From Patescibacteria group bacterium (GTDB lineage Bacteria > Patescibacteriota > Microgenomatia > 0-14-0-10-38-17), in the NCBI GenBank assembly GCA_050953885.1, contig JBMNNJ010000002.1, positions 124,140-188,139 of the forward strand: 64,000 nt of DNA, given 5' to 3'. Both the position numbers and the translations under genes were made by a program. Under the pieces are notes generated by a model that had not been told where the DNA came from, made no database searches, and was given only the letters and a program-made list of their open reading frames with translations. Below, piece after piece: positions 9,021 through 62,521 of this stretch (positions are counted from its first letter, which is position 1; the number at the start of each line of letters is the position of its first letter).

Positions 9021-9236
9021 ACGCGAATTAACGCGAAAAATAAACTCAAATGTTAAATCGCAAAACTCAAAACTACAACTTAAAACTCAAATCTGAAAAA
9101 CACTTTTAAGTTCTAAGAAAGATTTAAGATTTGACATGTAGTTTTGCCATTTGCCATTTGCGTTTTGAGTTTATTTATTGTCTTTGAACTTTGATTTAGG
9201 TTTTGATTTTTGCGCTTTGCTCTTTGAGTTTGTCTG
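9021..9236. repeat. Long AT-rich imperfect palindromic element (AAAACTCAAA… / …TTTGAGTTTT family)
   Basis: The left arm is rich in AAAACTCAAAACT and the right arm is its reverse complement, centred near ACATGTAGTTTTG. Paralogous elements lie at 22552, 28585, 35040, 39290, 52236, 61010 and 62396. Confidence 0.7.
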
Positions 9237-9310
9237 TCACCTATAATAATTTAACCATTAAACATCCTTTATCAGAATTATAATCAACTGATATCATTTA
9301 TAATATTATT

Positions 9311-11107
9311 ATGGACAATTCTCTTCTTTCCTCTCTTAACCCTCAACAACAAAAAGCGGTTCTTTTTGGCAACGGCCCCCTGCTGGTTTTGGCCGGCGCT
9401 GGCAGCGGCAAAACCCGCGTTTTAACTCATCGCGTTGCCTACCTTGTTGGCGAAAAAAAAATTAACCCCCAAAATATTCTTTGTATCACTTTCACCAATA
9501 AGGCTGCCGAGGAAATGAGAGAGCGGCTGCAAGAGCTCTTGCCCGGCCAAAATTTGCCTTTTGCCGGCACTTTTCACGCTTTCTGCGTTTCTGTTTTGCG
9601 CCGGGAAGCAAGAGCAATTAACCTTTCCCCCCATTTTGTGATTTGGGACGAAACCGACCAACTGGCCGCCATAAGAAAAATCCTCAAGAAAAAAGGCCAA
9701 GATTATCAGCCTTCTTCTGTTCTTAGCGCCATATCGCAAGCTAAAAACGAGCTTATCTCGGCCCTTGAATATCCTCAATATGCCCGCAATTCTTTCCAAG
9801 AGTTGGTAGCCGAAGTTTATCTTGCCTATCAAAAAGAACTAAAGCTTGCCCAAGCTCTGGACTTCGATGATCTGTTGGTAGAAACCGTCAGGCTTTTTCA
9901 AAACTATCCCGAAATTTTAGGAAAATACCAAGAACGCTACCAGTATATTTTTGTTGATGAATATCAAGACACCAACGCCGCCCAATATTTTCTCACCAAA
10001 GCCTTAGCCGGCCGCCATCAGAATCTTTTTGCCGTTGGCGATATAGCGCAGTCGATCTATTCGTGGCGAGGAGCCGATTATCATAATGTTTTACGCCTTA
10101 AAGATGACTTTCCTAATTTAACGGTGATCAACTTAGAGCAAAATTATCGCTCCACCCAAAATATTCTTGACGCCGCCTATGGTGTTATCTCCCAAAACCA
10201 TTCCCATCCGGTTCTTCATCTTTGGACCCAAAAAGAGAAGGGCGAAAAAATTTGCCTTTATAACGGCGCCAGCGAAGAAGATGAGGCTCGTTTTATTGCC
10301 GAAAAAATTATTGAACTTACCCAAAAAGGTTATCAAAACAATCAAATGGCTATTCTTTACCGCACCAACGCCCAGTCAAGAATTTTAGAAGAAGTTTTAC
10401 TTCGTTATAATCTTAATTATAAATTAATCGGCGGCGTTCGTTTTTACGAAAGACGGGAAGTTAAGGATGTTTTGGCTTTCTTGCGCGCTTTGGTTAACCC
10501 CCAAGATTCTCTTGCCTGGCAAAGAATCGAAAAAATTGGTAAAAGAATTAAAGGAAAATGGGAAAAATTTAGCCAAGAAAACAAGCCCTCCCGAGAACTT
10601 GAAAGCGCAAAATTGGTAAAGCTCGCCTTAGAAGAAAGCGGCTATCTTGGAAAACTTAACCCCGAAAAAGAAGAAGATCTTTCCCGAATAGAAAATATTA
10701 AAGAGCTGATTAGTGTGGCCCAAAATTTTCCCAATGTTGATGATTTTCTTGCCAATATTGCTTTGATGGAAGAAGAATATTTCCCTCAAGGAAAGCTTGA
10801 AAGCCAAAACAGCCAAGTCGCAGCGGTTAACCTGATGACTCTTCATCGGGCTAAGGGAACGGAATTCCCTGTTGTTTTTATTACCGGCCTAGAGGAAGGG
10901 CTCCTGCCTCATTATCGCGCCCTTAACAATCCTCAAGAGCTTGAAGAAGAACGCCGGCTTTGCTACGTTGGTCTCACCCGCGCCCAGGAAAAATTATTTT
11001 TAACCCTTGCCTCAAGGCGGCTTCTTTTTGGCAAAAAAAGCAGTAATCCGCCCTCAAGGTTTTTAAGCAATATCCCGGAAGATTTAATCAACCTTATTAA
11101 TTATTAG
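9311..11107 (+). CDS. UvrD/PcrA/Rep-family ATP-dependent DNA helicase (no intein)
   Basis: Walker A GAGSGKTRVLT, motif Ia TFTNKAAEEM, DEYQDTN, and an intact motif III VGDIAQSIYSWRGA. Confidence 0.8.
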   Translation: MDNSLLSSLNPQQQKAVLFGNGPLLVLAGAGSGKTRVLTHRVAYLVGEKKINPQNILCITFTNKAAEEMRERLQELLPGQNLPFAGTFHAFCVSVLRREARAINLSPHFVIWDETDQLAAIRKILKKKGQDYQPSSVLSAISQAKNELISALEYPQYARNSFQELVAEVYLAYQKELKLAQALDFDDLLVETVRLFQNYPEILGKYQERYQYIFVDEYQDTNAAQYFLTKALAGRHQNLFAVGDIAQSIYSWRGADYHNVLRLKDDFPNLTVINLEQNYRSTQNILDAAYGVISQNHSHPVLHLWTQKEKGEKICLYNGASEEDEARFIAEKIIELTQKGYQNNQMAILYRTNAQSRILEEVLLRYNLNYKLIGGVRFYERREVKDVLAFLRALVNPQDSLAWQRIEKIGKRIKGKWEKFSQENKPSRELESAKLVKLALEESGYLGKLNPEKEEDLSRIENIKELISVAQNFPNVDDFLANIALMEEEYFPQGKLESQNSQVAAVNLMTLHRAKGTEFPVVFITGLEEGLLPHYRALNNPQELEEERRLCYVGLTRAQEKLFLTLASRRLLFGKKSSNPPSRFLSNIPEDLINLINY

Positions 11108-11108
11108 C

Positions 11109-11705
11109 ATGGAGATTCTCTCTTTCAAGCTAGGTCCCTTGGAAACTAACGCCTATCTTGTCTTCTGCCCAAAAACACGGGCCGGCTTAATTATTGACCC
11201 AGCCGATGAGGCTAATTTTCTAAGCGAAAAAATTTTGAGAGAAAAAATTAAACCGCTTGCCATTGTTGCCACCCATGGCCATTTTGATCACCTTCTAGCC
11301 GCTAACGAACTCCAGCTGGCTTTTGACATTCCTTTTTTAATTCATCAAAACGACCAAAAAGTTCTTTCCACCATGCAAAAATCCGCCTCTTGGCATCTTA
11401 GGAGAAAAATGAGCGAGGAGCCGCCAAAAAAATTAAGTTTTCTAAAAGAAGGAGAGGAAATTTGCTTCGGTAAGGAATCGCTAACCGTGATTGAACTTCC
11501 CGGGCACACGCCCGGCAGTATTGGCCTTTATAACTTTTCTCAAAAAATTCTCTTCAGTGGCGACACCATTTTTAAAGATGGGGTGGGGAGAGCTGACTTT
11601 TTCTACAGTTCACCGGAAAATTTAGCGTCCTCGCTTCAAAAGATAAAAGAAAAATTTAGCGGTTTTATGATTTTCCCCGGCCATGGCGAAAGCTTCCGGC
11701 TTTAA
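11109..11705 (+). CDS. MBL-fold metallo-hydrolase (glyoxalase II-like)
   Basis: HGHFDHL metal-binding motif and GHTPGS. Confidence 0.7.
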   Translation: MEILSFKLGPLETNAYLVFCPKTRAGLIIDPADEANFLSEKILREKIKPLAIVATHGHFDHLLAANELQLAFDIPFLIHQNDQKVLSTMQKSASWHLRRKMSEEPPKKLSFLKEGEEICFGKESLTVIELPGHTPGSIGLYNFSQKILFSGDTIFKDGVGRADFFYSSPENLASSLQKIKEKFSGFMIFPGHGESFRL

Positions 11706-11999
11706 TTAAACCGTAGCGCGGATCTCAAATTGGCCAAAGAAGGGATCCTTTTTGATCGCTTTTTTCCCCTTAATTCTTACCTCTTCTACCCGCGCCAAAG
11801 GCGAGCCACGTTTAAGCCAGGAAAGCATTTCTTCAATTTTCTCCCTAGGGCCAACAAGCATTGCCTCTACCCGGCCATCTTTTAAATTCCGCACCCAACC
11901 GGAAAGGCCTAAATTCTCGGCCTTTATTTTGGTAAACATCCGAAAGCCTACCCCTTGTACCCGGCCGGAAACGAAAAGATGAACTTTGAGAAAAGGCAT
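11706..11999 (-). CDS. acyP: Acylphosphatase
   Basis: 97 aa, with [11 protein letters not shown] and [12 protein letters not shown] signatures. Confidence 0.8.
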
Positions 12000-12101
12000 G
12001 ATTAATCAAGCACAATGGGCGATTCATGAATCGCCCCTACAGATTTATTTTCGTTTTAAAACAATTTAACAGTTTAACAGTTATTTTGTGTTATTATAAC
12101 A

Positions 12102-13121
12102 TTGATGCTCGTTAAACCTGTTTCCTCTTCGCAAAAAGAAGACTTTGACCGCTTGGCCACCCATCCCCTCCAGTCATGGGCGTGGGGAGAATTTCGCCAA
12201 AAAATGGGCCAAAAAGTGGCCCGCTTTGGGATCTTTGAAAGCCAGAAAATGGTCGGTTCCTTTCAGCTTTTCTTCCACCATCTCCCTCATCTTTCTTATA
12301 CCGTAGGCTATTTTCCTAAAGGACCAATGCCTACCCCGTTAATAATAAAAACTCTTAAAAAAGTAGGCCAAGAAAACAAAGCCATTTTTATTAAACTGGA
12401 ACCAAATATCCAAAAATCCGAAACCCGATCCGCCAGTAGGCGGACGAAATCCGAAATAAAAAAGTTAGGGCTTATAAAAGGCAAGCCGCTTTTTACCCGC
12501 CACACCATGATTATTAACTTAGAAAAAAGCGAAGAAGAACTAATGGCCGGTTTTGCTTCAAAAACCCGCTATAATATCCGCCTCGCCCAAAAAAGAGGAG
12601 TAAAAATCGTTGAAGATAATTCCCAAAAAGGGTTTGAACAGTACTGGCAATTGATGGAAGAAACCACTAAAAGACAAAAATTTTACGCCCATAACAAGGC
12701 CTACCACCAGCTGATGTGGCAAGAAATGAGCCGCGCCGGCATCGCCCACCTTTTAAAAGCAGTTTACCAAAAAGAAACTCTGGCCGCTTGGATTCTTTTT
12801 GCCTTTAACGGCGTTCTTTATTATCCTTATGGGGCTTCAACGCGGCGCCATCAGGAAGTAATGGCCTCAAATTTAATGATGTGGGAGGCAATTCGCTTGG
12901 GAAAAAGATTGGGTTGCAAAAAGTTTGATTTATGGGGAACCCCGGGACCCGATCCAAAACCCGATGACCCCTGGTTTGGTTTTCACCGTTTCAAGATGGG
13001 CTACCGGCCGGAAATTGTTGAATTTATCGGCACTTACGATTTAGTCCTCCGCCCTGTTTTCTATCAATTTTATCTTTGGGCTGACAAAGTTCGCTGGCAA
13101 TTTTTGCGCCTTAAAGCCTAA
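12102..13121 (+). CDS. FemAB-family aminoacyltransferase-like protein (peptidoglycan interpeptide bridge formation family)
   Basis: 339 aa. KTRYNIRLAQKRGVKIVE and overall FemAB/GNAT-fold resemblance; family assignment made by eye. Confidence 0.5.
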   Translation: MMLVKPVSSSQKEDFDRLATHPLQSWAWGEFRQKMGQKVARFGIFESQKMVGSFQLFFHHLPHLSYTVGYFPKGPMPTPLIIKTLKKVGQENKAIFIKLEPNIQKSETRSASRRTKSEIKKLGLIKGKPLFTRHTMIINLEKSEEELMAGFASKTRYNIRLAQKRGVKIVEDNSQKGFEQYWQLMEETTKRQKFYAHNKAYHQLMWQEMSRAGIAHLLKAVYQKETLAAWILFAFNGVLYYPYGASTRRHQEVMASNLMMWEAIRLGKRLGCKKFDLWGTPGPDPKPDDPWFGFHRFKMGYRPEIVEFIGTYDLVLRPVFYQFYLWADKVRWQFLRLKA

Positions 13122-14190: not shown

Positions 14191-14403
14191 AAAATTGTCC
14201 GCTTACACAAGACATTAAAATTAATAATGCGGACGGGGCATAAATAAAGCGGCGCATTTTAAAGCGCGCCAATTCCAGCACAAACAGCCTGCCTGCCACA
14301 AGAGGAAAGTTTACTACCAGCAAACGGCAGAATAAATTGCATCTCAACCGCAAATAACAAAATAAGATAAATATAAGAATCAAAAGGAGGATGTCTCCAT
14401 AAT

Positions 14404-14482
14404 TTCTGAAATGCTTTAGATCATTTCAGAAATTACAAAAAGAGTGGAATTACTAGCAATTAAATGCTTTAGAGCATTTCGT
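14404..14482. promoter_or_regulatory. Two copies of the GAAATGCTTTA(A/G)A(G/T)CATTTC palindrome, in the recF upstream region and downstream of the YerC-like gene
   Basis: 14404-14431 TTCTGAAATGCTTTAGATCATTTCAGAA and 14463-14482 AAATGCTTTAGAGCATTTCG. Confidence 0.4.
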
Positions 14483-15092: not shown

Positions 15093-15114
15093 CGAAATGC
15101 TTTAAAGCATTTCG
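15093..15114. promoter_or_regulatory. Perfect 22-bp palindrome CGAAATGCTTTAAAGCATTTCG, ~60 bp upstream of the YerC/TrpR-like gene (candidate operator)
   Basis: The palindrome is perfect. It belongs to the same motif family as 14404, 14463 and 57585. Confidence 0.4.
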
Positions 15115-15179
15115 GAATATAAAAATTTAAAAAACACTAACCCAAAGGGCCAAAATATTATTTTCCCAACGGTTTTGCT

Positions 15180-16084: not shown

Positions 16085-16115
16085 GTTGCAGGCTTGTAGG
16101 GGCGTATTGCATACG
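16085..16115. repeat. GC-rich hairpin GGCTTGTAGGGGCGTATTGCATACGCCCG (second copy, inverted, at 50521-50556)
   Basis: 8-bp arms GGGCGTAT/ATACGCCC; it sits in the mutM upstream region. Confidence 0.55.
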
Positions 16116-16188
16116 CCCGCAACAATATAGCAATTTAACAATTTAACAATATAGCAATGAATTCCACCGCTTTTTATTTCAAAAAAAA

Positions 16189-20164: not shown

Positions 20165-20180
20165 ACTTTAGCCCGCGCCT

Positions 20181-20229
20181 ATCATTCGCTCATTCGTGTT
20201 AATTCGTTTCCAATTCGCGCTAATTCGCG
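20181..20229 (+). repeat. ATTCG-rich 48-bp repeat element (copy b)
   Basis: ATCATTCGCTCATTCGTGTTAATTCGTTTCCAATTCGCGCTAATTCGCG, followed by TTAACAGTTTAACAC. Confidence 0.7.
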
Positions 20230-20262
20230 TCTTTTAACAGTTTAACACTTTAATTTTATGAT

Positions 20263-21261: not shown

Positions 21262-21292
21262 TCCTTAATTATAACACCGAAGGAAAAGAAAG

Positions 21293-22540
21293 CTATGTGC
21301 GGTGTCCAGGACATGCTATACACTTCATGAGGTTTGGGTATGAGGAATATGTAAGAAGAGTGTTAAAATTGGTGGGTGTTAATTTTGAGAGTGTAGTAAA
21401 GGGGGTGAAAAAGCATGAGTCCTGGAATCCATGGAATCCGGATAGACTACAAGGAATTAAGAAAGATTAATCCAGAAGCAGCCAGACAAACAGTGATTGA
21501 GTATCTAAAGACTAATGGCCACAACATTGCTGATACCGCCAGGGTTTTTAGGGTCAACAGGACAGTGGTTTATGACATCTTGGCAAAAAGCAAAGAGGGC
21601 AATCTTAAAGACAGACCCAAGATACCAAAACACCAGCCCAACAAGACACCAGCCAAGACAGAAGGTAAAGTCATTAAGGCCAAGAACAAAACCCACCTGG
21701 GGCCAAAAAGATTATCACGCTACCTTGAGAAACATGAAGGGATTCTTGTTCCTCCAGGAACAATCAGGCACATTCTAAGGAGGAATAAAGACAGGCTTAC
21801 TTACAAACTAAAATCAAACAAGAGAAGAAAACAACCAAGGGAGTTTGTTGACTGGTATTCAGCTAAACCTTTTGAGATTGTCCAAATGGATATCAAATTC
21901 ATTAGGGATCAGAAAGCCCTGACTAAAAAGCAAATTATTCATCTTAACCAATATGATATTCCCAACTATCAATGGGGAGCCCTGGATGTTAACTCTAGGT
22001 TTAAACTAATTGCTTATTCCAAGGAAAAATCTTGGACTAATGGTTTGTGTTTTTACCTTTGGACTATTTCCTGGTTAAGGTCTCATGGGGTTAAATCAGA
22101 GATTGCCTTTACTGTTGATAATGGTGAGGAATTTGGGGGTAGATCCTGGTTGAAGGTCAAAGAGTTAAGAAAACTGATCAGGGGTTTTGGCTGTAGATTA
22201 ATCCAGAACCACAAAGGTCATCCTGAGGAGAATGCTCATTTGGAAAGAAGCCATAGAACCGATGACGAAGAGTTCTACATTCCCAGGGTCCTACAGATTA
22301 AGAGCAAAAAAGATCTCTTGAATGAGGCCCTGGGTTACATTTATTACTACAACAATGTCCGGGAACACTCATCCTTAGACTATCAAATACCCTACCAATA
22401 TCTGAAAATGCAATTACCAGAGATTGATGATAACATACGTTATGTACAACCGATTATCCTTGATGATGTCTCGGTAAAACTAGGCCCTTGGAGTGGATAC
22501 AATGTCTTGGCACATCACCGCTAAATTATTAAATGGCTAA
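21293..22540 (+). mobile_element. IS481-family-like insertion sequence (single DDE transposase); right boundary approximate
   Basis: The left end TGTGCGGTGTCCAGGA is shared with a truncated second copy at 25667. It encodes a 369-aa HTH + rve-type DDE transposase. Terminal inverted repeats were not resolved by eye. Confidence 0.6.
21415..22524 (+). CDS. DDE transposase (N-terminal HTH + integrase-core rve domain), IS481-like
   Basis: N-terminal HTH (IADTARVFRVNRTVVYDIL). The core has WGALDVN (D), TVDNGEEF (D) and HLERSHRTDDEEFY (E) in an rve-like arrangement. Confidence 0.7.
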   Translation: MSPGIHGIRIDYKELRKINPEAARQTVIEYLKTNGHNIADTARVFRVNRTVVYDILAKSKEGNLKDRPKIPKHQPNKTPAKTEGKVIKAKNKTHLGPKRLSRYLEKHEGILVPPGTIRHILRRNKDRLTYKLKSNKRRKQPREFVDWYSAKPFEIVQMDIKFIRDQKALTKKQIIHLNQYDIPNYQWGALDVNSRFKLIAYSKEKSWTNGLCFYLWTISWLRSHGVKSEIAFTVDNGEEFGGRSWLKVKELRKLIRGFGCRLIQNHKGHPEENAHLERSHRTDDEEFYIPRVLQIKSKKDLLNEALGYIYYYNNVREHSSLDYQIPYQYLKMQLPEIDDNIRYVQPIILDDVSVKLGPWSGYNVLAHHR

Positions 22541-22551
22541 ACTCCCCTAAA

Positions 22552-22672
22552 AAAGTCAAAAGTTAAAATTTAAAAGTCAAAATTACAAGTAAAAACCTAA
22601 AAGTGAAGCAAAAAAACTTTTAACTTTTAAATTTTGAATTTTGAATTTTGACTTTTGAATTATATACTTAAT
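22552..22672. repeat. AT-rich palindromic element (AAAAGTCAAAAGTTAAAATTT… / …AAATTTTGAATTTTGACTTTT)
   Basis: Left and right arms are reverse complements. It lies between the IS right end and the tRNA-Met 3' end. Confidence 0.65.
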
Positions 22673-22685
22673 ACTAGCGCCTTTG

Positions 22686-25666: not shown

Positions 25667-26035
25667 TTGTGCGGTGTCCAGGAGATGCGATACACTTCAT
25701 GAGGTTTGGGCATGAGGAACATGTAAGAAGAGTGTTAAAATTGGTGGGTGTTAATTTTGAGAGTGTAGTAAAGGGGGTGAAAAAGCATGAGTCCTGGAAT
25801 CCATGGAATCCGGATAGACGACAAGGAGTTAAAAGATTAATCCAGAAGCAGCCAGACAAACAGTGATTGAGTATCTAAAGACTATAATGGCCACAACATT
25901 GCTGATACCGCCAGGGTTTTTAGGGTCAACAGGACAGTGGTTTATGACATCTTGGCAAAAAGCAAAGAGGGCAATCTTAAAGACAGACCCAAGATACCAA
26001 AACACCAGCCAAGACAGAAGATAAAGTCATTCGCA
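25667..26035 (+). pseudogene. Truncated, degenerate second copy of the IS481-like element (5' ~370 bp only)
   Basis: Near-identical to 21293-21665 with point changes, an in-frame TAA, a small insertion and a 15-bp deletion. It ends ~30 bp from the tRNA-Ile 3' end. Confidence 0.7.
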
Positions 26036-26064
26036 ATCTCGTGTTTACCTGCCCAGCGCACGGG

Positions 26065-26136
26065 TGCGCCTGCTTGGATTCGAACCAAGGACGTCTACTT
26101 TATAAGAGTAGCGCTCTACCACTGAGCTACAGGCGC
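26065..26136 (-). tRNA. tRNA-Ile (anticodon TAT; UAU reads AUA)
   Basis: Manual cloverleaf. Acceptor GCGCCTG/CAGGCGC, D-arm GCTC-AGTGGTA-GAGC, anticodon stem CTACT/AGTAG with loop CTTATAA, T-arm CTTGG-TTCGAAT-CCAAG, discriminator A. Confidence 0.75.
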
Positions 26137-26223
26137 AACGAAAGTTAAAAGTTTTTTAGATCGGACTTCTATCTGCTCTTTATTATACTTTATACTCTAT
26201 ACTTTATACACTACACATTAGAT

Positions 26224-28560: not shown

Positions 28561-28584
28561 ATTCGTAATGTAAAAGTCACTCCG

Positions 28585-28860
28585 CCGGCGGGCGGAGCAA
28601 AATTAAAAATCAGTAATTCGTAATATGTAATAAAAAAAGCGCAAAAAGCAAAACGCAAAGAGCAAAACCTAAATCAAAGTTCAAAAATATTTTTAATTTT
28701 TGGTTTTGGTTTTTGAGCTTGGTTTTGCATTTTACTCTTTGCACTTTAATCTTGTTTTCTCACGAGTTACTAACTTTTTACACTTTACTTTTGAATTTTG
28801 ACTTGTAATTTTGATTTAGGTTTTAATCTTTTCCGCCAGCTGGCGGATTGACTTTTCGTT
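28585..28860. repeat. AT-rich palindromic element plus GC palindrome CCGCCAGCTGGCGG (28833-28846)
   Basis: AAAGCAAAACGCAAAGAGCAAAACCTAAATCAAAG … CTTTGCACTTTAATC arms. It includes the TTGAGCTTGGTTTTGCATTTTA segment also found at 62402. Confidence 0.65.
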
Positions 28861-28877
28861 TTACATTAATTTAGCGT

Positions 28878-29261
28878 TTATCCTGTGTGCTTCCCCGCAA
28901 ACCCCACTTTTCCCCCCAAAAGCTTTATTAACCGTTTTGACCATTCCGCCAGCCAGCGCAGGGAATCCTCAATTTTTGCTTCAAGCCCCGCTTGATATTC
29001 TGCCGCTGTTATGGGCAGAATAATCTCTGGCGCTACCGGCGCGGGCGGGGAAACCAAAACTTCGCCGGTTTGATCGTCTAAAACCGGCGTTGGCAAAACA
29101 TACTGTTCCTTTTCTAATTTCTCAATTCCTGTTTCAGGCGCCACTTCTGGTTCCCGACCCACCTCAATAATCGGCACTCTTTCCTCACTAAAGCCATTTT
29201 CTGCCTTTGCTTCCCGCTCTTTACCGGGCAAGCCGGTTATATCATCAGCCATATTCTTCAT
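28878..29261 (-). CDS. Hypothetical acidic protein
   Basis: 127 aa, Glu/Pro-rich, no recognisable domain. Confidence 0.45.
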   Translation of the reverse strand: MKNMADDITGLPGKEREAKAENGFSEERVPIIEVGREPEVAPETGIEKLEKEQYVLPTPVLDDQTGEVLVSPPAPVAPEIILPITAAEYQAGLEAKIEDSLRWLAEWSKRLIKLLGGKVGFAGKHTG

Positions 29262-29417: not shown

Positions 29418-29465
29418 CTCATTCGCTCATTCGCGTCCATTCGTTTCTCATTCGCGTTAATTCGC
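29418..29465 (+). repeat. ATTCG-rich 48-bp repeat element (copy c), ~65 bp upstream of the methyltransferase gene
   Basis: TCATTCGCTCATTCGCGTCCATTCGTTTCTCATTCGCGTTAATTCGCG, followed by AATTTAACAATTTAGC. Confidence 0.7.
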
Positions 29466-29528
29466 GTATTTTAGTAATTTAACAATTTAGCTCAAAAACT
29501 TTTTTTATGAGAAAATAGGAAAAAAGCA

Positions 29529-31384: not shown

Positions 31385-31432
31385 TTCATTCGCTCATTCG
31401 CGTCCATTCGTTTTTCATTCGCGTTAATTCGC
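31385..31432 (+). repeat. ATTCG-rich 48-bp repeat element (copy d)
   Basis: TTCATTCGCTCATTCGCGTCCATTCGTTTTTCATTCGCGTTAATTCGCG, followed by AGCAATTTAACCGTTTAA. Confidence 0.7.
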
Positions 31433-31469
31433 GTCTTTCAGCAATTTAACCGTTTAATAATTTATTTTT

Positions 31470-43469: not shown

Positions 43470-43991
43470 CTATTCTACCTCCCAATCCTTCTCATCAAAA
43501 AAAGGATTAGGACGGGCGAGTTCTCTGATTTGCGCTAAAACTTCAAGGATTTTTTGATTACGATTTTCGGGACTATCACCACTCGCATAATAAACCCCCA
43601 CCAACCAACCTACCGTAATTCTATAGTGTTCGTATTGGTCTAAATTTTCAGGAAACTTATTAGGATCAAGCTCATTTGCTTTTTCAAGATTCTTTAAAAT
43701 ATCTTGAGCTATCTCTGAATTTTCTCCTCCATAGGGTTCATAAATCTTAATAATATCGGCATAGAGTTGTTGCTCTGAAGAAAGAGACGGGGTTGTTGTC
43801 TGCTGGGAAGGCTCGGAGGTAATTATTTGATTCTCTTTTTTTAACTTAAACCAATAAATTCCTTCCCCGATTAGCGCTAAAATCACCAAACCTAACGCCA
43901 AATAAAGAAATATTGGCTTTTTTGCTTTTTCGGGAACTGGAGGAAAAGAAAGGTGGCTTAGCTGTTTTTCTTCCGGCGATAAATTTTCCAT
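43470..43991 (-). CDS. Single-pass membrane protein carrying the shared ~100-aa C-terminal domain X
   Basis: 173 aa with a TM (IFLYLALGLVILALIGEGIYWF). The C-terminus QQLYADIIKIYEPYGG…FFDEKDWEVE is identical to the C-terminus of the 44827 gene. Confidence 0.6.
   Translation of the reverse strand: MENLSPEEKQLSHLSFPPVPEKAKKPIFLYLALGLVILALIGEGIYWFKLKKENQIITSEPSQQTTTPSLSSEQQLYADIIKIYEPYGGENSEIAQDILKNLEKANELDPNKFPENLDQYEHYRITVGWLVGVYYASGDSPENRNQKILEVLAQIRELARPNPFFDEKDWEVE
43473..43777. repeat. 305-bp segment 100% identical to 44833-45137 (encodes domain X)
   Basis: Compared by eye across the whole length; no mismatches seen. Confidence 0.8.
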
Positions 43992-44826: not shown

Positions 44827-46381
44827 TTACTTTTCTACCTCCCAATCCTTCTCATCAAAAAAAGGATTAGGACGGGCGAGTTCTCTGATTTGCGCTAAAA
44901 CTTCAAGGATTTTTTGATTACGATTTTCGGGACTATCACCACTCGCATAATAAACCCCCACCAACCAACCTACCGTAATTCTATAGTGTTCGTATTGGTC
45001 TAAATTTTCAGGAAACTTATTAGGATCAAGCTCATTTGCTTTTTCAAGATTCTTTAAAATATCTTGAGCTATCTCTGAATTTTCTCCTCCATAGGGTTCA
45101 TAAATCTTAATAATATCGGCATAGAGTTGTTGCTCTTCCGAAGTTAATTCCGGCGTTGGCGTTGGTTCCGCCTCTGCCTCCTTCCATCCCCACTCTCCCT
45201 TCTCCTCGTCATAGGAAACTTGGGCAAAGTCAACCAGCTCGCCTTGGTCGTTTTGCTCTTGAAGAAGGAAGCTGATCTTGCCTTCTTCTTCCTGTTGGAC
45301 AAGATTCCAAATGGCGGGCATCTGGTCGGGATAGGGAACAACGGGGTTTTTAATCAGCTTGCCGTTTATCTGGTCCACAAAGGCAAGGCCAGTGGCTTGC
45401 CTTAGATCTTTGATTAAGTCTTCTCCTTCTATCCGGTTTAGGCCCACCTTGGTTTGCTCTTTGGTTTGGGGATCAACAAGGGTAATCTCGTTTGCTTGAG
45501 GGTCATACTGATAACCATTAGCTTCTAAGAGGTTTTTAAGAGTCAGGGCATTCTTGTTATCAGAGTCGGCCGGAAGGTGGGTGGGGAGAACGGCTAAGTA
45601 GTGGCGGGGGACGCCTTCCTCGGAGGAACGAAGATAGTCAGTAAAGGAAACTAAGGCGAAGTTAAGCTCGCCTGCGGCAACTTCCTTGTCAACAGTAATC
45701 TCCTCGGCCGACTTGGGTTGGTTAAGCAAGCCGACTACCGTCATCTGGGTTTGGGGGCGAAGGAGAAGGCCTTGGGGGGAGACCCGCTCCGGATATTCTT
45801 GCTCCTTTTGCTCTCCTTCTGAAGGAATCTTTTCTAAAGTTAACCTTGGCAGTGATAAGTCTTTTAACTGGGGAAAGATTATCTCTTCTCCTTGCTTTCC
45901 AGGGGTAAAAACGCCTTCTTTACCCTGATAAGTACCTAAGGAAATTAAATATTTTAGTGAAGAAATAGGATCTTCGGATAATTTAGCAAAATCAACTTCT
46001 TCTCCCCACGATGAGGAAACATAATCCTGGCCAAATTGGACCAGCGACACTTCCTCCTGACCGTTGGTAACAATCTCCTCGCCGCCAATACCGGCAAAGG
46101 CGTTCCTTAAGTAGTCGGCAGTGATCGTCGTGCCGGCAATACTTATTATCTCCGGGGCAGGAGAGGGTTCGGGAGAAAGAATAAGGGTTGGCTCTTTTGT
46201 TTTGACAGGGGTTTGGGTAGGAGGGACCTGTCTCGGTTGGAGAAGGGGCTTTGGTTGGTTCTTCCCCAGAGGGTTTTTCTTTAACGCCGCAGGAGGAAAG
46301 CAGGGCCGAGGCGCCCAAAGCGGTGATGCCCTTTAAAAACTGCCTTCTGGTGATTCCCTTTGGTTCCTTTTCTTCAACCAT
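44827..46381 (-). CDS. Tat/lipobox-signal exported protein with Pro-rich linker and C-terminal domain X; apparent frameshift near 46215-46260 (possible pseudogene or sequencing indel)
   Basis: The N-terminal frame (46381→) reads MVEEKEPKGITRRQFLKGITALGASALLSSCG…, then degenerates into an Arg/Cys-rich frame. The frame of the 407-aa ORF is open upstream of its GTG start and reads a sensible Pro-rich linker (…PPTQTPVKTKEPTLILSPEPSPAPEIISIAGTT…). Confidence 0.5.
44833..45137. repeat. Second copy of the 305-bp identical segment (see 43473-43777)
   Basis: Identical sequence. Confidence 0.8.
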
Positions 46382-50520: not shown

Positions 50521-50556
50521 CCCGCCCCCATACGGGCGTATGCAATACGCCCCTAC
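50521..50556. repeat. GC-rich hairpin (inverted copy of 16085-16115), within a run of GC hairpins at 50455-50560
   Basis: CCCATACGGGCGTATGCAATACGCCCCTACAAGCC. Also CGGGGTGGGG…CCCCACCCG. Confidence 0.5.
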
Positions 50557-50593
50557 AAGCCCACTCATAAACTGATGTTATAATAAGGCCAAG

Positions 50594-51382
50594 ATGGGCG
50601 CGGAAATTTCGAGAACAACGGTTTTTTCTCCCGATTGGCTAAACCGCCTTAATTCCGCCCGGACAGAGGCTTTCGCTACCCAAAAATTTTTAGAGCAACG
50701 AGGCGGGCGGGGGGTAGTCTTGGGCAACGGCGGTAAAGCCGATTTGGAAAAAATTTTCCAAGCAAGCCTTTTGGGGTTGCGGCTTAAAAATAAGGTGGAA
50801 GTTGATAAAAATGCCCTTAGCCCCTATGAACGAAGTTTAATCAACCAAGACGCTCGCCTTTTAACGATTATCGATTGGGACGGAGTAATGGGCAGTCCCC
50901 TTCACGCGGTCTTAAAATTTGCCCAAAAGCCCGCCTCATGGAAAGGGGGATTTGGAGAAATTAAAAAATTAGGGCGAGTTAATCTTGAAGAATGGCGCTG
51001 GTTTAAAAAAATGGCCCGGGCAAGCGATTATTTGGTCGTTTGGTCAAGCCGCTTCTTGGTTGACGAAGAATCTCCCTTAAGTTTCCTTGCCAAACCCTTC
51101 GCCGCCCCCATCAGCTACTGGCCTTTCTTTGACAAAAGTTCTCTTCGCCGTCTTGCCTTAATTGAGCCGGATAAAATCGAGGTTTGGCCGCAAAAGCCGC
51201 TTTTGGACCGCAAAACCTCTTTGGAAAAAATTATCGGCGGCACCACCATTAAATCTTGGGAGATGATTTACTATGTCGGCAGCAGCCATTTTGACCGCCA
51301 AACGGTCCGCCGCTTTGTTAAGAAAAATCCCCATCTTGCTCCCCGTTTTGTCTTTTTTGACACCAGCCACCTGATTTTTTAA
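50594..51382 (+). CDS. Hypothetical protein, possible HAD-like fold
   Basis: 262 aa. IIDWDGVM resembles HAD motif I. Weak. Confidence 0.35.
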   Translation: MGAEISRTTVFSPDWLNRLNSARTEAFATQKFLEQRGGRGVVLGNGGKADLEKIFQASLLGLRLKNKVEVDKNALSPYERSLINQDARLLTIIDWDGVMGSPLHAVLKFAQKPASWKGGFGEIKKLGRVNLEEWRWFKKMARASDYLVVWSSRFLVDEESPLSFLAKPFAAPISYWPFFDKSSLRRLALIEPDKIEVWPQKPLLDRKTSLEKIIGGTTIKSWEMIYYVGSSHFDRQTVRRFVKKNPHLAPRFVFFDTSHLIF

Positions 51383-52229: not shown

Positions 52230-52283
52230 TTCTCCTTACTAATTTTTCACTTTTGAATTTTGACTTTTAACTTTTGACCTTTT

Positions 52284-53348
52284 TTAATATCTTCTCTCCA
52301 CCATAAAGTCAATCCCCGCCCTGATTTGGGAACGAGCGGGCTCTTTTTTTAAAAAGCCCAAGTTTTCTTCAAAAAATTCTCCGGCTTTTTGGGCTAATTT
52401 TTGAGCCAACTTTTCTCCATAAAAAAGACTGCCGTATTTTTCCATCGCCTTAATCACCCAAAGCGCTTCTTCCTCGCTTTTTTCCTCCCTTTTCTTTACT
52501 AAAATCTTAAGCAGTTTTTGCCGATCTTCGCCTTTAGCGCTTCGTAGAAGGTGAGCCAGCATGATTGTTCGTTTGCCCTCGTAAATATCATTGCCGGTTT
52601 GCTTTTTTAAGCCGGCAAAATCGGAGGTTAAATCAAGCAGATCGTCACGGATTTGAAAAGCGCGGCCTAAAATCTGGCCAAACCGATAAAGAGAAACCAG
52701 CTGTTTTTGACTCCCGTTGGCCAAAATGGCTCCCAAACGCATCGGCCCGGCAATGGTGTAGTAAGAAGTTTTGCCGTCTAAAATGAAAAAGATATCCTCA
52801 TCGGTTAAATCAAGACGATTTTCCCGAGCCCATTTTATCTCCGCCGTTTGCCCCAAAGCGGTTCGGCTAAGCATTTGGTAAAATTCCTCCTCTATTGCTA
52901 AGGCTTTCTTTTGGCCTAAAAGGGAAAAATTATCTGCCAAAATCTTCCACATTAAAATATGCAAAGCATCCCCGGCATTAATCGCCAGCTCTATCCCGTA
53001 AAGGCGATGAAGCGCCGGCTGACCGCGACGCTGGCGGGAATTATCCTCCACATCGTCATGGCCTAAAAGCCAGTCCTCGGAAACCTGCATTGCCGCCGCC
53101 GTTTTAAGCGCCTTCTCTTGGGAAAAACCCATCGCCTCGGCGGTCAGCAAAACCAGTGTTGGCCGCAGATATTTCCCCTGCCGGCGGGGATATTCGGCGG
53201 TTATTTTTTGGTGAAAAGAAGCAAGAGGGGAATATTTTTTGGAAATTTGGCAATAAGAGGGGAGGCGGACCAGGCCGGTAAGATATTTTTCAATTTCTGG
53301 CCAAACCAAGGCTTTTTTCTCGGCTAAAACTTCCGGAAAAGAGAGCAT
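52284..53348 (-). CDS. trans-Polyprenyl diphosphate synthase (IspA/GGPPS family)
   Basis: FARM LGHDDVEDNSRQRRG and SARM FQIRDDLLD. Confidence 0.8.
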   Translation of the reverse strand: MLSFPEVLAEKKALVWPEIEKYLTGLVRLPSYCQISKKYSPLASFHQKITAEYPRRQGKYLRPTLVLLTAEAMGFSQEKALKTAAAMQVSEDWLLGHDDVEDNSRQRRGQPALHRLYGIELAINAGDALHILMWKILADNFSLLGQKKALAIEEEFYQMLSRTALGQTAEIKWARENRLDLTDEDIFFILDGKTSYYTIAGPMRLGAILANGSQKQLVSLYRFGQILGRAFQIRDDLLDLTSDFAGLKKQTGNDIYEGKRTIMLAHLLRSAKGEDRQKLLKILVKKREEKSEEEALWVIKAMEKYGSLFYGEKLAQKLAQKAGEFFEENLGFLKKEPARSQIRAGIDFMVERRY

Positions 53349-53395
53349 CGTTGAAAATTAAAATTGTATTTTATATCTGTATTAAGCTGGGGTAC

Positions 53396-53442
53396 GCGAA
53401 TTAACACGAATGAGAAACGAATGAACGCGAATGAACGAATGC
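53396..53442 (-). repeat. ATTCG-rich repeat element (copy e, inverted), ~50 bp upstream of the polyprenyl synthase gene. Followed at 53443-53476 by nested palindrome GTCATCCTGATGAATCCGCCAGCTGGCGGACAGGATCTG
   Basis: CGCGAATTAACACGAATGAGAAACGAATGAACGCGAATGAACGAATG. Confidence 0.7.
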
Positions 53443-53534
53443 GTCATCCTGATGAATCCGCCAGCTGGCGGACAGGATCTGCCTTACCCATTACCCCATT
53501 ACGAGTTTTTGATTTTTGCGTTAATTCTCATTTG

Positions 53535-55449: not shown

Positions 55450-55498
55450 AATTCGTTCATTCATGTTTATTCGTTCGCTATTCGTTCCCATTCGTGTC
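55450..55498 (+). repeat. ATTCG-rich repeat element (copy f, degenerate), ~50 bp upstream of trxB
   Basis: AATTCGTTCATTCATGTTTATTCGTTCGCTATTCGTTCCCATTCGTGTC. Confidence 0.6.
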
Positions 55499-55548
55499 TC
55501 TTAATCTCCCTTGCCAAAAACTCTCTTAAACTTTATAATTAAACTCAA

Positions 55549-56520
55549 ATGAAAAAGCTTCCTCCTTACGACCTGATTATCATCGGCACCGGGCCGGCGG
55601 GGTTAGCGGCTTCTATTTATGCCAGCCGCTACCGGATAAAGCATTTGGTTTTAGGCCAACAGCCCGGAGGAACCATCACCCTAGCCCACAGAGTGGAAAA
55701 CTATCCCGGTTTTCCTTCAATTTCCGGCTTTGAATTAGGGCAAAAATTCTTAGACCATGCTAAAAGCTTAGGGGGCGATATCGAAAATAAAGAAGTGGTG
55801 GAAATTAAAAAAGAAAATAACCATTTTAAAATCATTACCAACAATAACGGTCAATATCAGGCAAAAGCCATTATTATTGCCACCGGCACCAAAAGGAAAA
55901 GTTTGGGTATTCCCGGCGAGGATACTTATTTGGGCCACGGCGTTTCCTATTGCGCCACCTGCGACGCCGCTTTTTATAAAGGAAAAACCGTTGCCGTGGT
56001 GGGCGGAGCCAACGCCGCCTGCTCCGGCGCTCTGCATCTGGCCCGCTTTGCCCAAAAAGTTTATCTTATTTATCGCGGCGAGCGCTTGCGGGCAGAACCG
56101 GCTTGGGTACAAGAAGCTCGGGAAAATCCTAAAATTGAAATAATTTTTAACACCAATCCCCTCGCTATTTCAGGCGACGGGCAAAAAGTCACCGCCATTG
56201 CCTTAGACAAGCCCTATGGAGGGCAAAAAGAACTTGCCGTTGACGGCGTTTTTATTGAAGTGGGGGGAGTGCCGGTAGCCGGTTTAGTTAAAAATTTAGG
56301 GGTTAAAACCGATGAGGATAATTATCTTTTAACCGATAATTCGATGGCTACTAATATCCCCGGCATTTTCGCCGCCGGCGATATCAACGCTTTCCAGAAA
56401 AACTGTCAGCAGGTGGTTACCGCTGTGGCCGAAGGCGCTCAAGCGGCCTTAGGGGTTTACCAATATCTAAGTCAGACTACCGCTTCTCCTCGCCAGCCGG
56501 CAAAACGGACAAAGGATTAA
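55549..56520 (+). CDS. trxB: Thioredoxin-disulfide reductase
   Basis: FAD site IIGTGPAGLAA, redox-active CATCDA, and NADPH site GGANAACSGA. Confidence 0.85.
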   Translation: MKKLPPYDLIIIGTGPAGLAASIYASRYRIKHLVLGQQPGGTITLAHRVENYPGFPSISGFELGQKFLDHAKSLGGDIENKEVVEIKKENNHFKIITNNNGQYQAKAIIIATGTKRKSLGIPGEDTYLGHGVSYCATCDAAFYKGKTVAVVGGANAACSGALHLARFAQKVYLIYRGERLRAEPAWVQEARENPKIEIIFNTNPLAISGDGQKVTAIALDKPYGGQKELAVDGVFIEVGGVPVAGLVKNLGVKTDEDNYLLTDNSMATNIPGIFAAGDINAFQKNCQQVVTAVAEGAQAALGVYQYLSQTTASPRQPAKRTKD

Positions 56521-57362: not shown

Positions 57363-57401
57363 AAAAAACAATATGCTTATTATAGCAAAAATTGAAAGAG
57401 A

Positions 57402-57453
57402 CGCGAATTGGCACGAATGAGAAACGAATGGACGCGAACGAGCGAATGAAATG
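57402..57453 (-). repeat. ATTCG-rich repeat element (copy g, inverted), ~40 bp upstream of tRNA-Ser
   Basis: CGCGAATTGGCACGAATGAGAAACGAATGGACGCGAACGAGCGAATGAAATG. Confidence 0.65.
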
Positions 57454-57639
57454 TAGGTGTGCCCCTTGTGGACGTTCGACCATGCGGGCCCTGTACCAGA
57501 ACGGTACGGGGCGGGCGGGGATACTCCCGAGGTTCCTGCCTAATCAACCCCCGGAGTTGATTAGCTTGCAACCTCGGGATTAAATGCTTTAGAACATTTC
57601 AAAAAAATTCATTACCGGAAATTACAGGGGTTGGTAGCC

Positions 57640-57840
57640 GGAATTTTGTCTGCGCCAACCAAGAAGAGAGCGCAATAAATTGCGCTATTCCACCTTGTTT
57701 TGGAATAGCGGGCTTTCCGCCAGGGGCGGACAGGTAGCCCGCGCCCACCATTCGCTCATTCGTATTAATTCGTTTCCCGTTCGTGTTAATTCGTGTATCT
57801 TAACAATGAAGCAATGAAGCAATGAAACAATTTAACAATC
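57640..57840 (+). repeat. Second copy of the composite repeat seen at 6660-6895 (TTTTGGAATAGCG inverted repeat + ATTCG element 57748-57795 + CAATGAAG tandem + TTTAACAATC)
   Basis: Same part order as 6660-6895. Includes a GAAATGCTTTAGAACATTTC-family palindrome at 57585-57603 just upstream. Confidence 0.7.
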
Positions 57841-59526: not shown

Positions 59527-59549
59527 AATCCGCCAAGCTGGCGGATTCG
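59527..59549. promoter_or_regulatory. GC palindrome AATCCGCCAAGCTGGCGGATT in the groES-groEL intergenic spacer
   Basis: Member of the AATCCGCCAGCTGGCGGATT family (others at 28833, 39461, 53455; degenerate copies at 60831, 60968, 61275). Followed by GTCAGAATGAC and ACAATTTGACAATTTAACAAT. Confidence 0.5.
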
Positions 59550-60699: not shown

Positions 60700-61000
60700 C
60701 AGACGCCTGTCAAGAGGAAAAATAGTAGGGGCGGACCCATGTGTCCGCCCGTCAAGGGGTTCGTGATTGTCTATTTAAAACCATTAATCGGGTCGACACA
60801 TGGGTCGACCCCTACAAATTCCTTATCTGCCCGCTGGCGGACAAAATCATCCCCGTAGCTGTCATTCCTGAATTAAATTCAGGACAGGCTCTGACGAAAG
60901 TGTCATCCTGACGAAAGTCAGGATCTGTTTTGATTCTGAATCAAGTTCAGAATGACGCTAATCGTGGCCGTCATTCTGACGAATTCGCCAGCTAACAGAC
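60700..61000. repeat. Cluster of GC-rich hairpins: paired CATG-centred palindromes (GGGCGGACCCATGTGTCCGCCC; GGGTCGACACATGGGTCGACCC) followed by four tandem related hairpin units (TCCTGAATT/AATTCAGGA; ATCCTGAC/GTCAGGAT; ATTCTGAA/TTCAGAAT; GTCATTCTGAC…)
   Basis: Read directly from the sequence. ~300 bp without a plausible ORF between vapB and the next gene. Confidence 0.6.
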
Positions 61001-61073
61001 AAGTCAAAATTAAAAAATAAAGCAAAAAAAAACTTTTAACTTTTAACTTGCACTTTTGACTTTTGAATTTTTT

Positions 61074-61955
61074 TTAATCTTTTATCATCTTCCGATACCT
61101 CCTCATCATTTCCCCTCGCCGGTCTTGGGGATGGAAAAAAAGCTGGCCGGGTAAAATTTCCTCCCGTCCCTGATGAGTGCTAATCCTTTTTAACTGAAGG
61201 CCAGCCAAAATCTTCTCGACAATAGGAGGAGAAACAGCCGTTACTTCCTTTTCTTCTTTACTTTTGACTTTTGTTCGCCAGTTAGCGGATTGACTTTTGA
61301 CTTTTTTCTCTCCCCACGCCTGCGGCAAAAAAGAAGCCGCCCAAAAATTGGCCTGTAAAAAACGCTGATAAGCATTGGCTTTATCAACCAAGGGCTTCAT
61401 CTGTAAAATCTCATGGGCGGTATATAAGTCATGCCGTTCTTTTTTCAAAGCCAAATGACCCTCCTCTAAAAAAAGATTAAGGCAAATTTTATCCCGCACT
61501 TCTTTTTGATTTGGTCGCCGCCGCCAGCCCAAAAGCTCCAAGAAAATAACGGCCAAAAAGCGGCTTCGCCAAAGCCAGCCGGAACGGGTAATTATTAAAA
61601 AATCAATATCGTCTTCTTTTTTGGCCGCCTTCATCGCCAAGTTGCCCGTTAACCCCACCAAAAGAACTCCCGGCAAAAAGCCCAAAAGCCGCGCCGCCTT
61701 TTGGGCTTTTTTTATTTTTCCCTCTGCATACCTTTCCCGTTTTTTCCTTAACTCGACGCTGTTTTTGGGAGGGAAAAAATAAAAACCATCTTTAACGCTA
61801 ACTTTTCCCGCCTTTCTTAATTCTTCCAAAGCTTTTTTTACTTCTTGCCGCCCTGCTTTGGCCGGCAGCCAAAGAAAAACTTCTTCCTCGCGAAGGGGGT
61901 AGGAGAAAAGATCAAAATAAGAAAGGCAAGCTAAGACGGCACTCTTTGTCTTCAT
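61074..61955 (-). CDS. Nucleotidyltransferase-domain protein (Pol beta superfamily, minimal NTase motif)
   Basis: GLTGNLAM…EDDIDFLII (GS/T…DxD). Contains a degenerate copy of the CGCCAGCTGGCGGATTGACTTTT repeat at 61270-61300. Confidence 0.45.
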   Translation of the reverse strand: MKTKSAVLACLSYFDLFSYPLREEEVFLWLPAKAGRQEVKKALEELRKAGKVSVKDGFYFFPPKNSVELRKKRERYAEGKIKKAQKAARLLGFLPGVLLVGLTGNLAMKAAKKEDDIDFLIITRSGWLWRSRFLAVIFLELLGWRRRPNQKEVRDKICLNLFLEEGHLALKKERHDLYTAHEILQMKPLVDKANAYQRFLQANFWAASFLPQAWGEKKVKSQSANWRTKVKSKEEKEVTAVSPPIVEKILAGLQLKRISTHQGREEILPGQLFFHPQDRRGEMMRRYRKMIKD

Positions 61956-62039
61956 AAAATATTGGAAGTATCACTTCTTATCTTCTAAACTTGCCCTCAT
62001 CAAACCTTAGCGCAAAAAGCAAATAGCAGAAATCAAAAC

Positions 62040-62429
62040 CTAAATCAAAGATTTGAGACTTCTTTTCCCTTTCATGGTCAAGATGCTAGCGCTTAAAATT
62101 TTGGCAATTTCTTCAGTTTCCCTCAAAAAACCGTTAATTTTGTCTTTTTGATCTGGAAGTAATTCTCTTAGCATCGCTAACCAATATTTAGTCTCTTGAG
62201 CACTTTTCAAAGAGATTTCGAAGAATTTTAAAAATTCTCTTTTGGAAACTGCACTTTTAGCCTCAACGATATTCGCCCCAATTGAGGTAACCGCCCTAAT
62301 AAGTTGATTAGCAATAATTTTTATTGCCTGCCGATATTCTAAACTCTCTAAGAAACTTATTATTTCCAAACTTAAACGAAACACCCTATATTTTAATTCT
62401 GTTTTTGGTCTTTGAGCTTGGTTTTGCAT
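62040..62429 (-). CDS. Four-helix-bundle protein (TIGR02436 / 23S rRNA intervening-sequence protein family)
   Basis: EYRQAIKIIANQLIRAVTSIGANIVEAKSAVSKREFLKFFEISLKSAQETKYWLAML is typical of this family. The N-terminal codons overlap a repeat segment (TTGAGCTTGGTTTTGCATTTTA, also at 28706). Confidence 0.65.
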   Translation of the reverse strand: MQNQAQRPKTELKYRVFRLSLEIISFLESLEYRQAIKIIANQLIRAVTSIGANIVEAKSAVSKREFLKFFEISLKSAQETKYWLAMLRELLPDQKDKINGFLRETEEIAKILSASILTMKGKRSLKSLI

Positions 62430-62521
62430 TTTAAAATTTGATTTTTACATTCTACAGTAAAAGTATCTTTTCGCTCGTCATTTTCGCCTAAAGTAAAGTA
62501 TATGAATCAGAATCAAACTCG

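Follow-up and report, generated by a model that had tools for sequence, protein, structure and literature searches.

Intervening sequences (IVSs) and the S23p open reading frames (ORFs) associated with them have been known since about 1990. Classical IVSs lie in helix 25 or 45 of 23S rRNA, their complementary borders form a stem, they are excised by RNase III, and the larger ones carry an S23p ORF (PMC4990558). In Coxiella, two to three tandem heptamers (GACAGAT), variable in number between strains, sit just upstream of the S23p start, and the study reporting them states that IVS 'functionality and origin remain unclear'; the S23p protein of Xanthomonas campestris is a homopentameric toroid (PMC4990558). 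Here we analyze a 64,000-nt stretch of contig JBMNNJ010000002.1 from a Patescibacteria group bacterium (hereafter the window), in which an S23p gene is bracketed by complementary heptamer arms and similar arms recur as AT-rich palindromes; these palindromes are probably the terminal arms of an extragenic, IVS-type S23p gene cassette, most of them being ORF-less relics that resemble miniature inverted-repeat transposable elements (MITEs). Like the 23S IVSs of the Leptospira, Coxiella, Brucella and Xanthomonas type, the elements have complementary termini whose stem encloses an ORF of about 120-130 aa matching PF05635/TIGR02436, carry heptamers at the ORF start (as in Coxiella), occur as ORF-less short forms, and are of unexplained origin and mobility. 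Unlike those IVSs, they lie between protein or tRNA genes rather than in helix 25 or 45 of 23S rRNA, their arms consist wholly of A/T-rich heptamers that overlap both start and stop codons, and several copies and arm subtypes are present within 64 kb. Apart from the Coxiella IVS paper, the limited literature that could be searched gave no earlier account of S23p cassettes in extragenic positions or of repeats like these in Candidate Phyla Radiation genomes.

The complete cassette occupies 61996-62465 on the minus strand. Its ORF (62040-62429, minus) encodes a 129-aa four-helix-bundle protein of the S23p/IVP type ("23S rRNA intervening-sequence protein"), with matches to Pfam PF05635 (E 1.6e-18), NCBIfam TIGR02436 (E 3.2e-24) and PDB 2RLD (E 1.7e-12). 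The 5' arm, made of A-rich heptamers (62389-62453, minus), includes the ATG and about the first 11 codons, which bears out a preliminary description of this DNA in which one repeat copy was said to supply the first codons of a four-helix-bundle protein gene. That description had also listed 62396-62440 as a family element by itself; the arm is real, but its partner, a 3' arm of T-rich heptamers at 61997-62066 (minus) that overlaps the last codons and the stop, had been missed, and the pair brackets the S23p gene. In the predicted fold of the cassette RNA, a terminal stem closes the molecule and takes in the start codon, both in the minimum free energy (MFE) structure and in the centroid. The S23p-type ORF is confined to the cassette region, and the seven other repeat regions of the window have none.

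The AT-rich palindromes are confirmed as a genuine family of related, dispersed repeats. The longest inverted repeat anywhere in the window is 35046-35108/35158-35220 (63 nt, 79%), and the four longest also include 9038-9094/9120-9176 (57 nt, 77%), 22548-22584/22630-22666 (37 nt, 84%) and 28650-28687/28710-28747 (38 nt, 76%). The arms of the elements are 40-70 nt long and 72-88% complementary, and both arms are degenerate tandem heptamers. The long hairpins proposed earlier stand for the five large elements, E1 to E5, which, folded as single strands, have MFE values well below both dinucleotide shuffles (z = -3.9 to -6.7) and shuffles that preserve the composition of each half (z = -3.8 to -7.1). 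All eight regions originally named as palindromes do carry the arms described, but 52236-52283 and 62396-62440 are single arms without a palindrome of their own, and 61000-61075 is weak, its fold having no advantage over shuffles (z about 0).

The copies are also related beyond a shared AT bias. Exact blocks of 21-23 nt link 9139-9160 with 39335-39356, 35076-35096 with 39441-39461, 9183-9205 (E1) with 28663-28685 (E3), 28712-28734 (E3) with 62411-62433 (cassette), and 22610-22630 with 61026-61046; comparable matches are rare between coding regions, the exceptions being two true duplications. Profile hidden Markov models (HMMs) of the 5' and 3' arms, trained on 54 foreign cassettes and not on the window copy, gave 12-14 matches in the window at E<1e-3, all of them in the listed repeat regions except for one site in a coding sequence (7872-7930). 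By comparison, no arm-profile match below E 0.1 arose in 20 control windows that had been block-shuffled (60-nt blocks) to preserve local A- and T-richness. A whole-cassette profile matched end to end at 62453-61996 (E 1e-103) and matched the other regions by its arm positions only.

The origin of the ORF-less copies is clearest in E3, a composite of outer GC mini-hairpins (28577-28600 and 28832-28847), a core hairpin and an extra T-arm that together span 28561-28877 (fold z -6.5 and -7.1; the palindromic elements are given here without strand). The core, 28617-28769, pairs an A-arm at 28617-28694 with a T-arm at 28697-28769 (arm HMM E 7.5e-8 to 1.3e-9). Two stretches of it align with the window cassette: 28637-28679 with 62009-62050 (42 nt, 86%) and 28686-28734 with 62387-62433 (48 nt, ~90%). 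These homologous flanks are separated by 7 nt in E3 and by about 336 nt at the cassette gene. The minus strand of E3 retains ATG CAA AAC CAA GCT CAA and ends in the last codons of the cassette gene, CTTTGATTTAG, and among all cassettes the best 8-mer match of the core is to the window cassette. Because the flanks are homologous and codons are retained at both ends, E3 can be read as the window's cassette unit minus its ORF; judged from these alignments, the core is a copy of that cassette that lost its ORF by internal deletion.

At least three arm subtypes coexist in the window. The GCAAAAC/CCTAAATC type is found in the cassette, in the E3 core and at 9181-9236; the CTCAAAA/CAAATCT type in E1, E4 and E5; and the GTCAAAA type in E2, 28787-28830, 52244-52291 and 61020-61071. 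E1 (9021-9240; fold z -3.9) consists of a CGAAT module (9021-9037), a CTCAAAA-type hairpin with an A-arm at 9033-9097 and a T-arm at 9115-9176 (arm HMM E 7.8e-7 to 3e-9), and an extra solo T-arm (9181-9236) in which the left-arm type of E3 and the cassette appears in reverse complement. E4 (35034-35225; A-arm 35034-35106, T-arm 35137-35222; z -6.7; arm HMM E 8e-11) lies between the divergent RNR and AddA-like genes, and its right arm aligns for 57 nt (~81%) from the TAG stop of a foreign cassette (L062). E5 (39316-39518; A-arm 39316-39357, T-arm 39434-39518; z -5.2; matched by the arm HMM) lies between convergent genes as a nested or decayed hairpin broken by GC mini-hairpins at about 39368-39396 and 39461-39477; its extent, previously put at 39290-39460, reaches about 39518. 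E2, a GTCAAAA-type hairpin (22541-22676; A-arm 22541-22608, T-arm 22610-22676; z -6.6; also matched by the arm HMM), sits between the transposase gene of an insertion sequence (IS) and tRNA-Met, and in pairwise alignment its arms are collinear with the 5' arm (from codon 2) and the stop-codon/3' arm of the L076 cassette. The convergent, divergent and IS-to-tRNA settings noted before thus hold, and tandem settings occur as well. The expectation that the palindromes center on CATGT does not, the motif lying within the 3' arm.

The smaller copies show the same relation to whole cassettes. A solo T-rich arm of the GTCAAAA type (52244-52291, plus strand; arm HMM E 7e-3) occupies the 54-nt spacer of two minus-strand genes, has exact 18-nt matches to 22639-22656 and 28787-28804, and aligns with both L076 arms; the corresponding exact 18 nt in the extra GTCAAAA-type T-arm of E3 (28787-28830) are 28787-28804 = 52249-52266. 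The weak, degenerate copy at 61000-61075 has a T-arm at 61020-61071 (arm HMM E 0.01-0.015) in which AAACTTTTAA survives from the final codons and stop of an L076-type cassette, with a 37-nt alignment to the L076 3' arm. In pairwise alignments E2, E4 and 61000-61075 each match foreign cassettes from the stop codon into the 3' arm.

We used the 129-aa window protein as a query against metagenomes, which contained 321 relatives; 80 loci were returned, at 50-95% protein identity, and the metagenomic contigs compared with the window are numbered L014-L098. A search of viral contigs for S23p found no close relative. Among the 80 loci, the arm profiles delimit 74 cassettes in which an A-arm and a T-arm lie 250-520 nt apart, so the repeats, thought at first to be specific to this lineage, bracket homologous genes elsewhere too. 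In nearly all 80 loci the A-rich heptamers set in shortly before the start codon and extend over roughly the first ten codons, and complementary T-rich heptamers begin at the stop codon. A period of 7 is clear in both arms, with autocorrelation peaks at lags 7 and 14; about 4-8 heptamers are chained per arm (median 4), and at the start codon they extend from about -9 to +31. The arm order is A-rich then T-rich throughout, and is reversed only where two elements abut. These data show that, across metagenomes of related but uncultured bacteria, genes of the S23p family generally have the heptamer-arm architecture.

The heptamers themselves differ between cassettes (ATCAAAG, CTCAAAA, GTCAAAA, GCTAAAA, CAGAAAT) whose proteins are 50-95% identical. 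Own-arm specificity is weak when judged by duplex energy because all arms cross-pair, and a k-mer test is needed instead. By that test, the two arms of one cassette share 10.4 reverse-complement 7-mers, compared with 6.6 for foreign arms (permutation p<1e-4); own arms share more exact reverse-complement 7-mers and therefore evolve in concert. We considered strand-specific RNA selection through G-U pairs and rejected it, as sense and antisense strands pair equally well, with no asymmetry.

In gene content the window is consistent with a small Patescibacteria-type chromosome (GroEL, FtsH, TrpRS, RNR, PcrA, tRNAs, glycosyltransferases), and a protein annotated as Candidatus Shapirobacteria (GCA_018052565.1) shares 90% identity with its AddA-like helicase. 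In a species-level genome collection the helicase had no close relative, the best matches being 40% (two Rokuibacteriota) and 31-35% (Patescibacteria-group genomes).

Comparison with relatives indicates that ORF-less hairpins turn over rapidly. In L086 and L093, from other organisms, ORF-less copies adjoin the full-length parent and keep its first 13-35 codons and the 3' arm. In L097 the intergenic region orthologous to that of E1 has a cassette of the GCAAAAC type that lacks the ORF and includes gcaaaaccaagctcaaagaccaaa from the start region; the right arm of this cassette matches window 9181-9236, and six more ORF-less hairpins occur in foreign loci. Together with E3, these cases show, on alignment, that ORF-less hairpins have arisen repeatedly through apparent internal deletion that kept the start- and stop-codon sides. 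The presence/absence comparison between relatives that was suggested for this family showed variation: four orthologous intergenic regions hold different elements, or none, in L014, L015, L016, L097 and L098, where flanking proteins are 82-96% identical. In the RNR/AddA spacer the hairpin is of the CTCAAAA type in the window and of the GTCAAAA type in L014, and L015 has other repeat modules there; the spacer 3' of AddA contains a 275-nt block (39223-39497, with E5) in the window versus 5 nt, 'aaacc', in L016, where AddA is 95% identical; the E3 spacer of L015 is shorter and has a different hairpin; and the DUF2298/PcrA spacer has three differing contents in the window, L097 and L098. Cassettes 80-87% identical in DNA occupy unrelated flanks; one vertically inherited cassette pair keeps flanks that are 85-88% identical. 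Contigs of the same strain from another sample stop within arms.

The T-rich heptamers complement the A-rich ones at the opposite end, and therefore the two ends of a full unit would pair into an imperfect A/T-rich duplex of a few tens of bp with the ORF in the loop. By analogy with classical 23S rRNA IVSs, this duplex would probably be an RNase III substrate in transcripts, so that a cassette or hairpin could be excised from longer transcripts or could end them. The 5' arm may be the A-rich one because it is translated, yielding a hydrophilic Lys/Gln/Asn tail instead of a hydrophobic one, and the fixed A-then-T order of the ORF-less copies would be inherited from the cassette. These copies would be mainly selfish or neutral relics whose spread and replacement involve no transposase but recombination, or template switching, among dispersed arms.

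Several observations weigh against reading the palindromes as arms of an IVS-type cassette. The direction of change, deletion rather than ORF insertion, rests on retained codons and not on phylogeny, and in the window no full-length parent was found for the hairpins of the CTCAAAA and GTCAAAA types. The fold of the whole cassette RNA is overall not above shuffles (z -0.15). Duplex energy is slightly better for own arms than for foreign ones (-39.3 versus -35.4 kcal/mol); given this small gain and the equal pairing of both strands, there is no sign of RNA-level selection over a DNA-level inverted repeat. Finally, none of the elements lies in an rRNA gene, where IVSs are defined: Rfam at gathering score found four tRNAs only across the whole window, with no match in the repeat regions, and tRNAs only in 20 sampled cassette loci. 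The lack of an Rfam match, together with orthologous positions that are not conserved and strands that fold equally, also makes it unlikely that the repeats are a conserved structured-RNA gene, one of the two identities proposed for them at the outset.

The other identity proposed was MITE-like, and part of it stands. Like MITEs and the Correia/NEMIS, RUP, ERIC and REP/BIME repeats, the elements are short, dispersed intergenic hairpins, some deletion-derived, that vary between strains and may overlap gene ends; internal-deletion derivation is seen in E3, L086, L093 and L097, and insertion polymorphism between relatives. If they were classical MITEs mobilized in trans by a transposase, such as that of the rve-family IS at 21415-22524, the arms would be terminal inverted repeats, and dispersed copies with inverted arms, replacement as well as presence/absence between relatives, and contig breaks within arms in related strains would all follow naturally. 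We nonetheless regard this as very unlikely. No target bases are duplicated at the E5 indel junction between the window and L016, the single junction open to comparison, and no target-site duplication was seen by eye at E1-E4; the arms are tandem heptamers of variable length in mosaic copies, without sharp or fixed termini, and only 21-23-nt exact blocks are common to copies; the parent ORF encodes a four-helix-bundle protein and not a transposase; and the IS duplicates (21296-21664 = 25668-26020) are distinct from the arm blocks and are not matched by the arm HMMs. Selection on the hairpins for a host function, as bidirectional terminators or as mRNA processing or stability elements, whether independent of the cassette or co-opted from it, is possible though unlikely. 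The constant A-then-T order means that transcripts in either direction end U-rich on the 3' side, at four of the five large hairpins at least one neighboring gene has its 3' end, and orthologous intergenic regions often keep some hairpin of the family despite differing sequence. Yet the genes on either side of E4 diverge from it, a strain with 95% AddA identity (L016) lacks the E5 block, and the arms of full cassettes are 330-400 nt apart. The stems also lack the GC-rich stem and T-run of intrinsic terminators: a terminator scan, which found 31 sites in the window versus 28.8 in shuffles, left the heptamer hairpins uncalled and called in their vicinity only the GC mini-hairpins 28577-28600 and 28832-28847 of the E3 region, so we rejected intrinsic termination, with which the position of E4 is again at odds.

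A further possibility is that the heptamers are arrays of putative binding sites for an oligomeric protein, perhaps S23p itself, serving autoregulation or mobilization. The strict 7-nt period of the arms, each of about 4-8 units, and the constant association of the arms with the S23p gene family are in its favor, as is the homology of S23p to Avd (PMC10053308), the nucleic-acid-binding role itself being an assumption; however, heptamer sequence varies widely while the proteins stay 50-95% identical, and slippage can also produce periodicity, leaving us doubtful of this reading. A related, bolder proposal, to which we give little credence, is that the S23p cassette is a distinct hairpin-ended selfish element whose pentamer binds its own arm heptamers as RNA or single-stranded DNA and promotes copying or relocation, with ORF-less hairpins mobilized in trans and rRNA IVSs representing copies that landed in 23S. 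Chance palindromy of low-complexity AT-rich DNA, by contrast, has practically no likelihood. Element-bearing spacers do have a GC content of 0.22-0.32, and any A-rich heptamer array pairs fairly well with a T-rich one, but such noise is refuted by the confinement of the exact blocks to intergenic regions, by folds that beat arm-preserving shuffles, and by foreign-arm profiles that match these sites and one coding site and nothing in block-shuffled windows. We also considered a promoter reading, in which T-rich TTGACT/TTGAAT units would be outward -35 boxes or UP elements, and rejected it on account of poor -10 spacing and inconsistent orientation, 52244-52291 and the E1 left arm facing gene 3' ends; a promoter scan counted 37 sites versus 25.6 in shuffles (standard deviation 5.3), about two standard deviations above.

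Two other systems resemble parts of the cassette. Cyanobacterial short tandemly repeated repetitive (STRR) sequences are intergenic tandem heptanucleotide arrays of one lineage and in this are like the window arms; the unit sequences differ. To our knowledge, no STRR sequences have been reported to flank a defined gene as a pair of inverted arms, and heptamer arms are not a described feature of diversity-generating retroelements (DGRs). The S23p family is homologous to the DGR accessory protein Avd, and the two share a four-helix-bundle fold family (PMC10053308). No reverse transcriptase domain was found in the scanned window ORFs of >=100 aa; template and variable repeats were not looked for.

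Taken with the 80 metagenomic loci, this locus shows that the S23p gene and its complementary heptamer arms form a cassette that stands free of rRNA, at multiple loci, in uncultured Microgenomates-type bacteria. If the palindromes are the arms of such a cassette, an old element type can be seen to live and turn over outside rRNA genes. ORF-less hairpins would then form a major and fast-changing part of the intergenic DNA, and the extragenic cassettes would be a concrete source population for rRNA IVSs, as well as material for testing the stem as an RNase III site and S23p binding to the stem. On a practical level, the arms break short-read assemblies of these genomes and can mislead the calling of gene starts.

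Other repeats share the intergenic regions with the heptamer arms. A second family is built of five ATTCG units in an array of ~50 nt (tcattcgctcattcgcgtccattcgtttctcattcgcgttaattcgcgt), to which CAATTTAA/AACAATGA 8-mers are usually attached. Copies lie on the plus strand at 6728-6775, 20180-20232, 29419-29467, 31385-31434, 55450-55497 and 57765-57800 and in reverse complement at 53394-53440, 57400-57450 and 9021-9037, with a partial copy at 35215-35236. The 8-mer end always points toward the nearest gene boundary, copies being in sense where genes start and in reverse complement where they end, so that inverted copies flank DUF2298, both in the window and in L098. In a wider and equally improbable form of the selfish-element proposal, complementary arrays that bracket whole transcription units, such as the ATTCG/8-mer arrays around DUF2298, would serve RNase III as 'punctuation' in long transcripts, by analogy with the processing stems of rRNA operons. 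GC-rich mini-palindromes (TCCGCCAGCTGGCGGA; GGGGCGTATTGCATACGCCC) are scattered between genes and nested in heptamer arms (28577-28600, 28832-28847, 39461-39477, 53455-53472 and 59529-59545; 16091-16119 and 50533-50561). One is present in the 3' arm of L017 and absent from the 99.7% identical L018 cassette, so these have an insertion polymorphism of their own. A further small hairpin family, gaaatgctttagagcatttc, occurs in three intergenic regions (14400-14480, 15095-15120, 57582-57605). Next to E3, a 127-aa ORF (28878-29261) was considered as a second S23p gene and rejected, having no similarity and no family match.

Within the DUF2298 gene (6909-9008), 44 nt at 7866-7912 are ~89% identical to the right arm of E1 (tagttttgcc[t/a]tttgcc[t/a]tttgcgttttgagttt) and encode a transmembrane helix, LVLPFAFCVLSL. 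We discarded an in-frame insertion as the explanation, since every homologue has a transmembrane helix there. That a nearly identical arm lies 1.2 kb away suggests a local exchange between repeat arm and coding region.

Between the RNR start and the variable hairpin of the RNR/AddA spacer lies a conserved block (34985-35045; 9830-9895 in L014; 8385-8450 in L015). On its minus strand TTGACA-N17-TTTAAT is the likely predicted RNR promoter, with an ~80-nt leader, and a conserved plus-strand TATAAT is directed into the hairpin. Both neighboring genes, RNR (31470-34922, minus) and the AddA-like helicase-nuclease (35248-39222, plus), contain inteins, that of RNR with a LAGLIDADG domain. The L014, L015 and L016 relatives (90-95% identity) lack both inteins (RNR 756-758 aa, helicase 959-960 aa), so the inteins are polymorphic in the lineage.

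Larger duplications are also present. A 304-nt exact direct duplication (43473-43776/44833-45136) lies within the neighboring minus-strand ORFs 43470-43991 and 44827-46050. The 5' end of the IS near E2, comprising the upstream region and the first ~250 nt of its rve-family transposase gene (21415-22524), is duplicated (21296-21664, 25668-26020), and the second copy, 25668-26020, is truncated and adjoins tRNA-Ile (26062-26137), whose anticodon UAU (tat) is an uncommon bacterial reading of AUA. The 396-nt 'intergenic' region that follows a metallo-beta-lactamase-fold gene corresponds, at 11706-12000, to a minus-strand acylphosphatase gene of L097 (10754-11047) and is probably an uncalled short gene or pseudogene, to judge from this correspondence. 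Finally, many genes of the window have a TATAAT-like box ~6-9 nt before the start codon and no Shine-Dalgarno sequence (6895-6911, 12088-12104, 21262-21280 on the minus strand, 50570-50596 and 55525-55551), suggesting that leaderless or very short-leader mRNAs are frequent.

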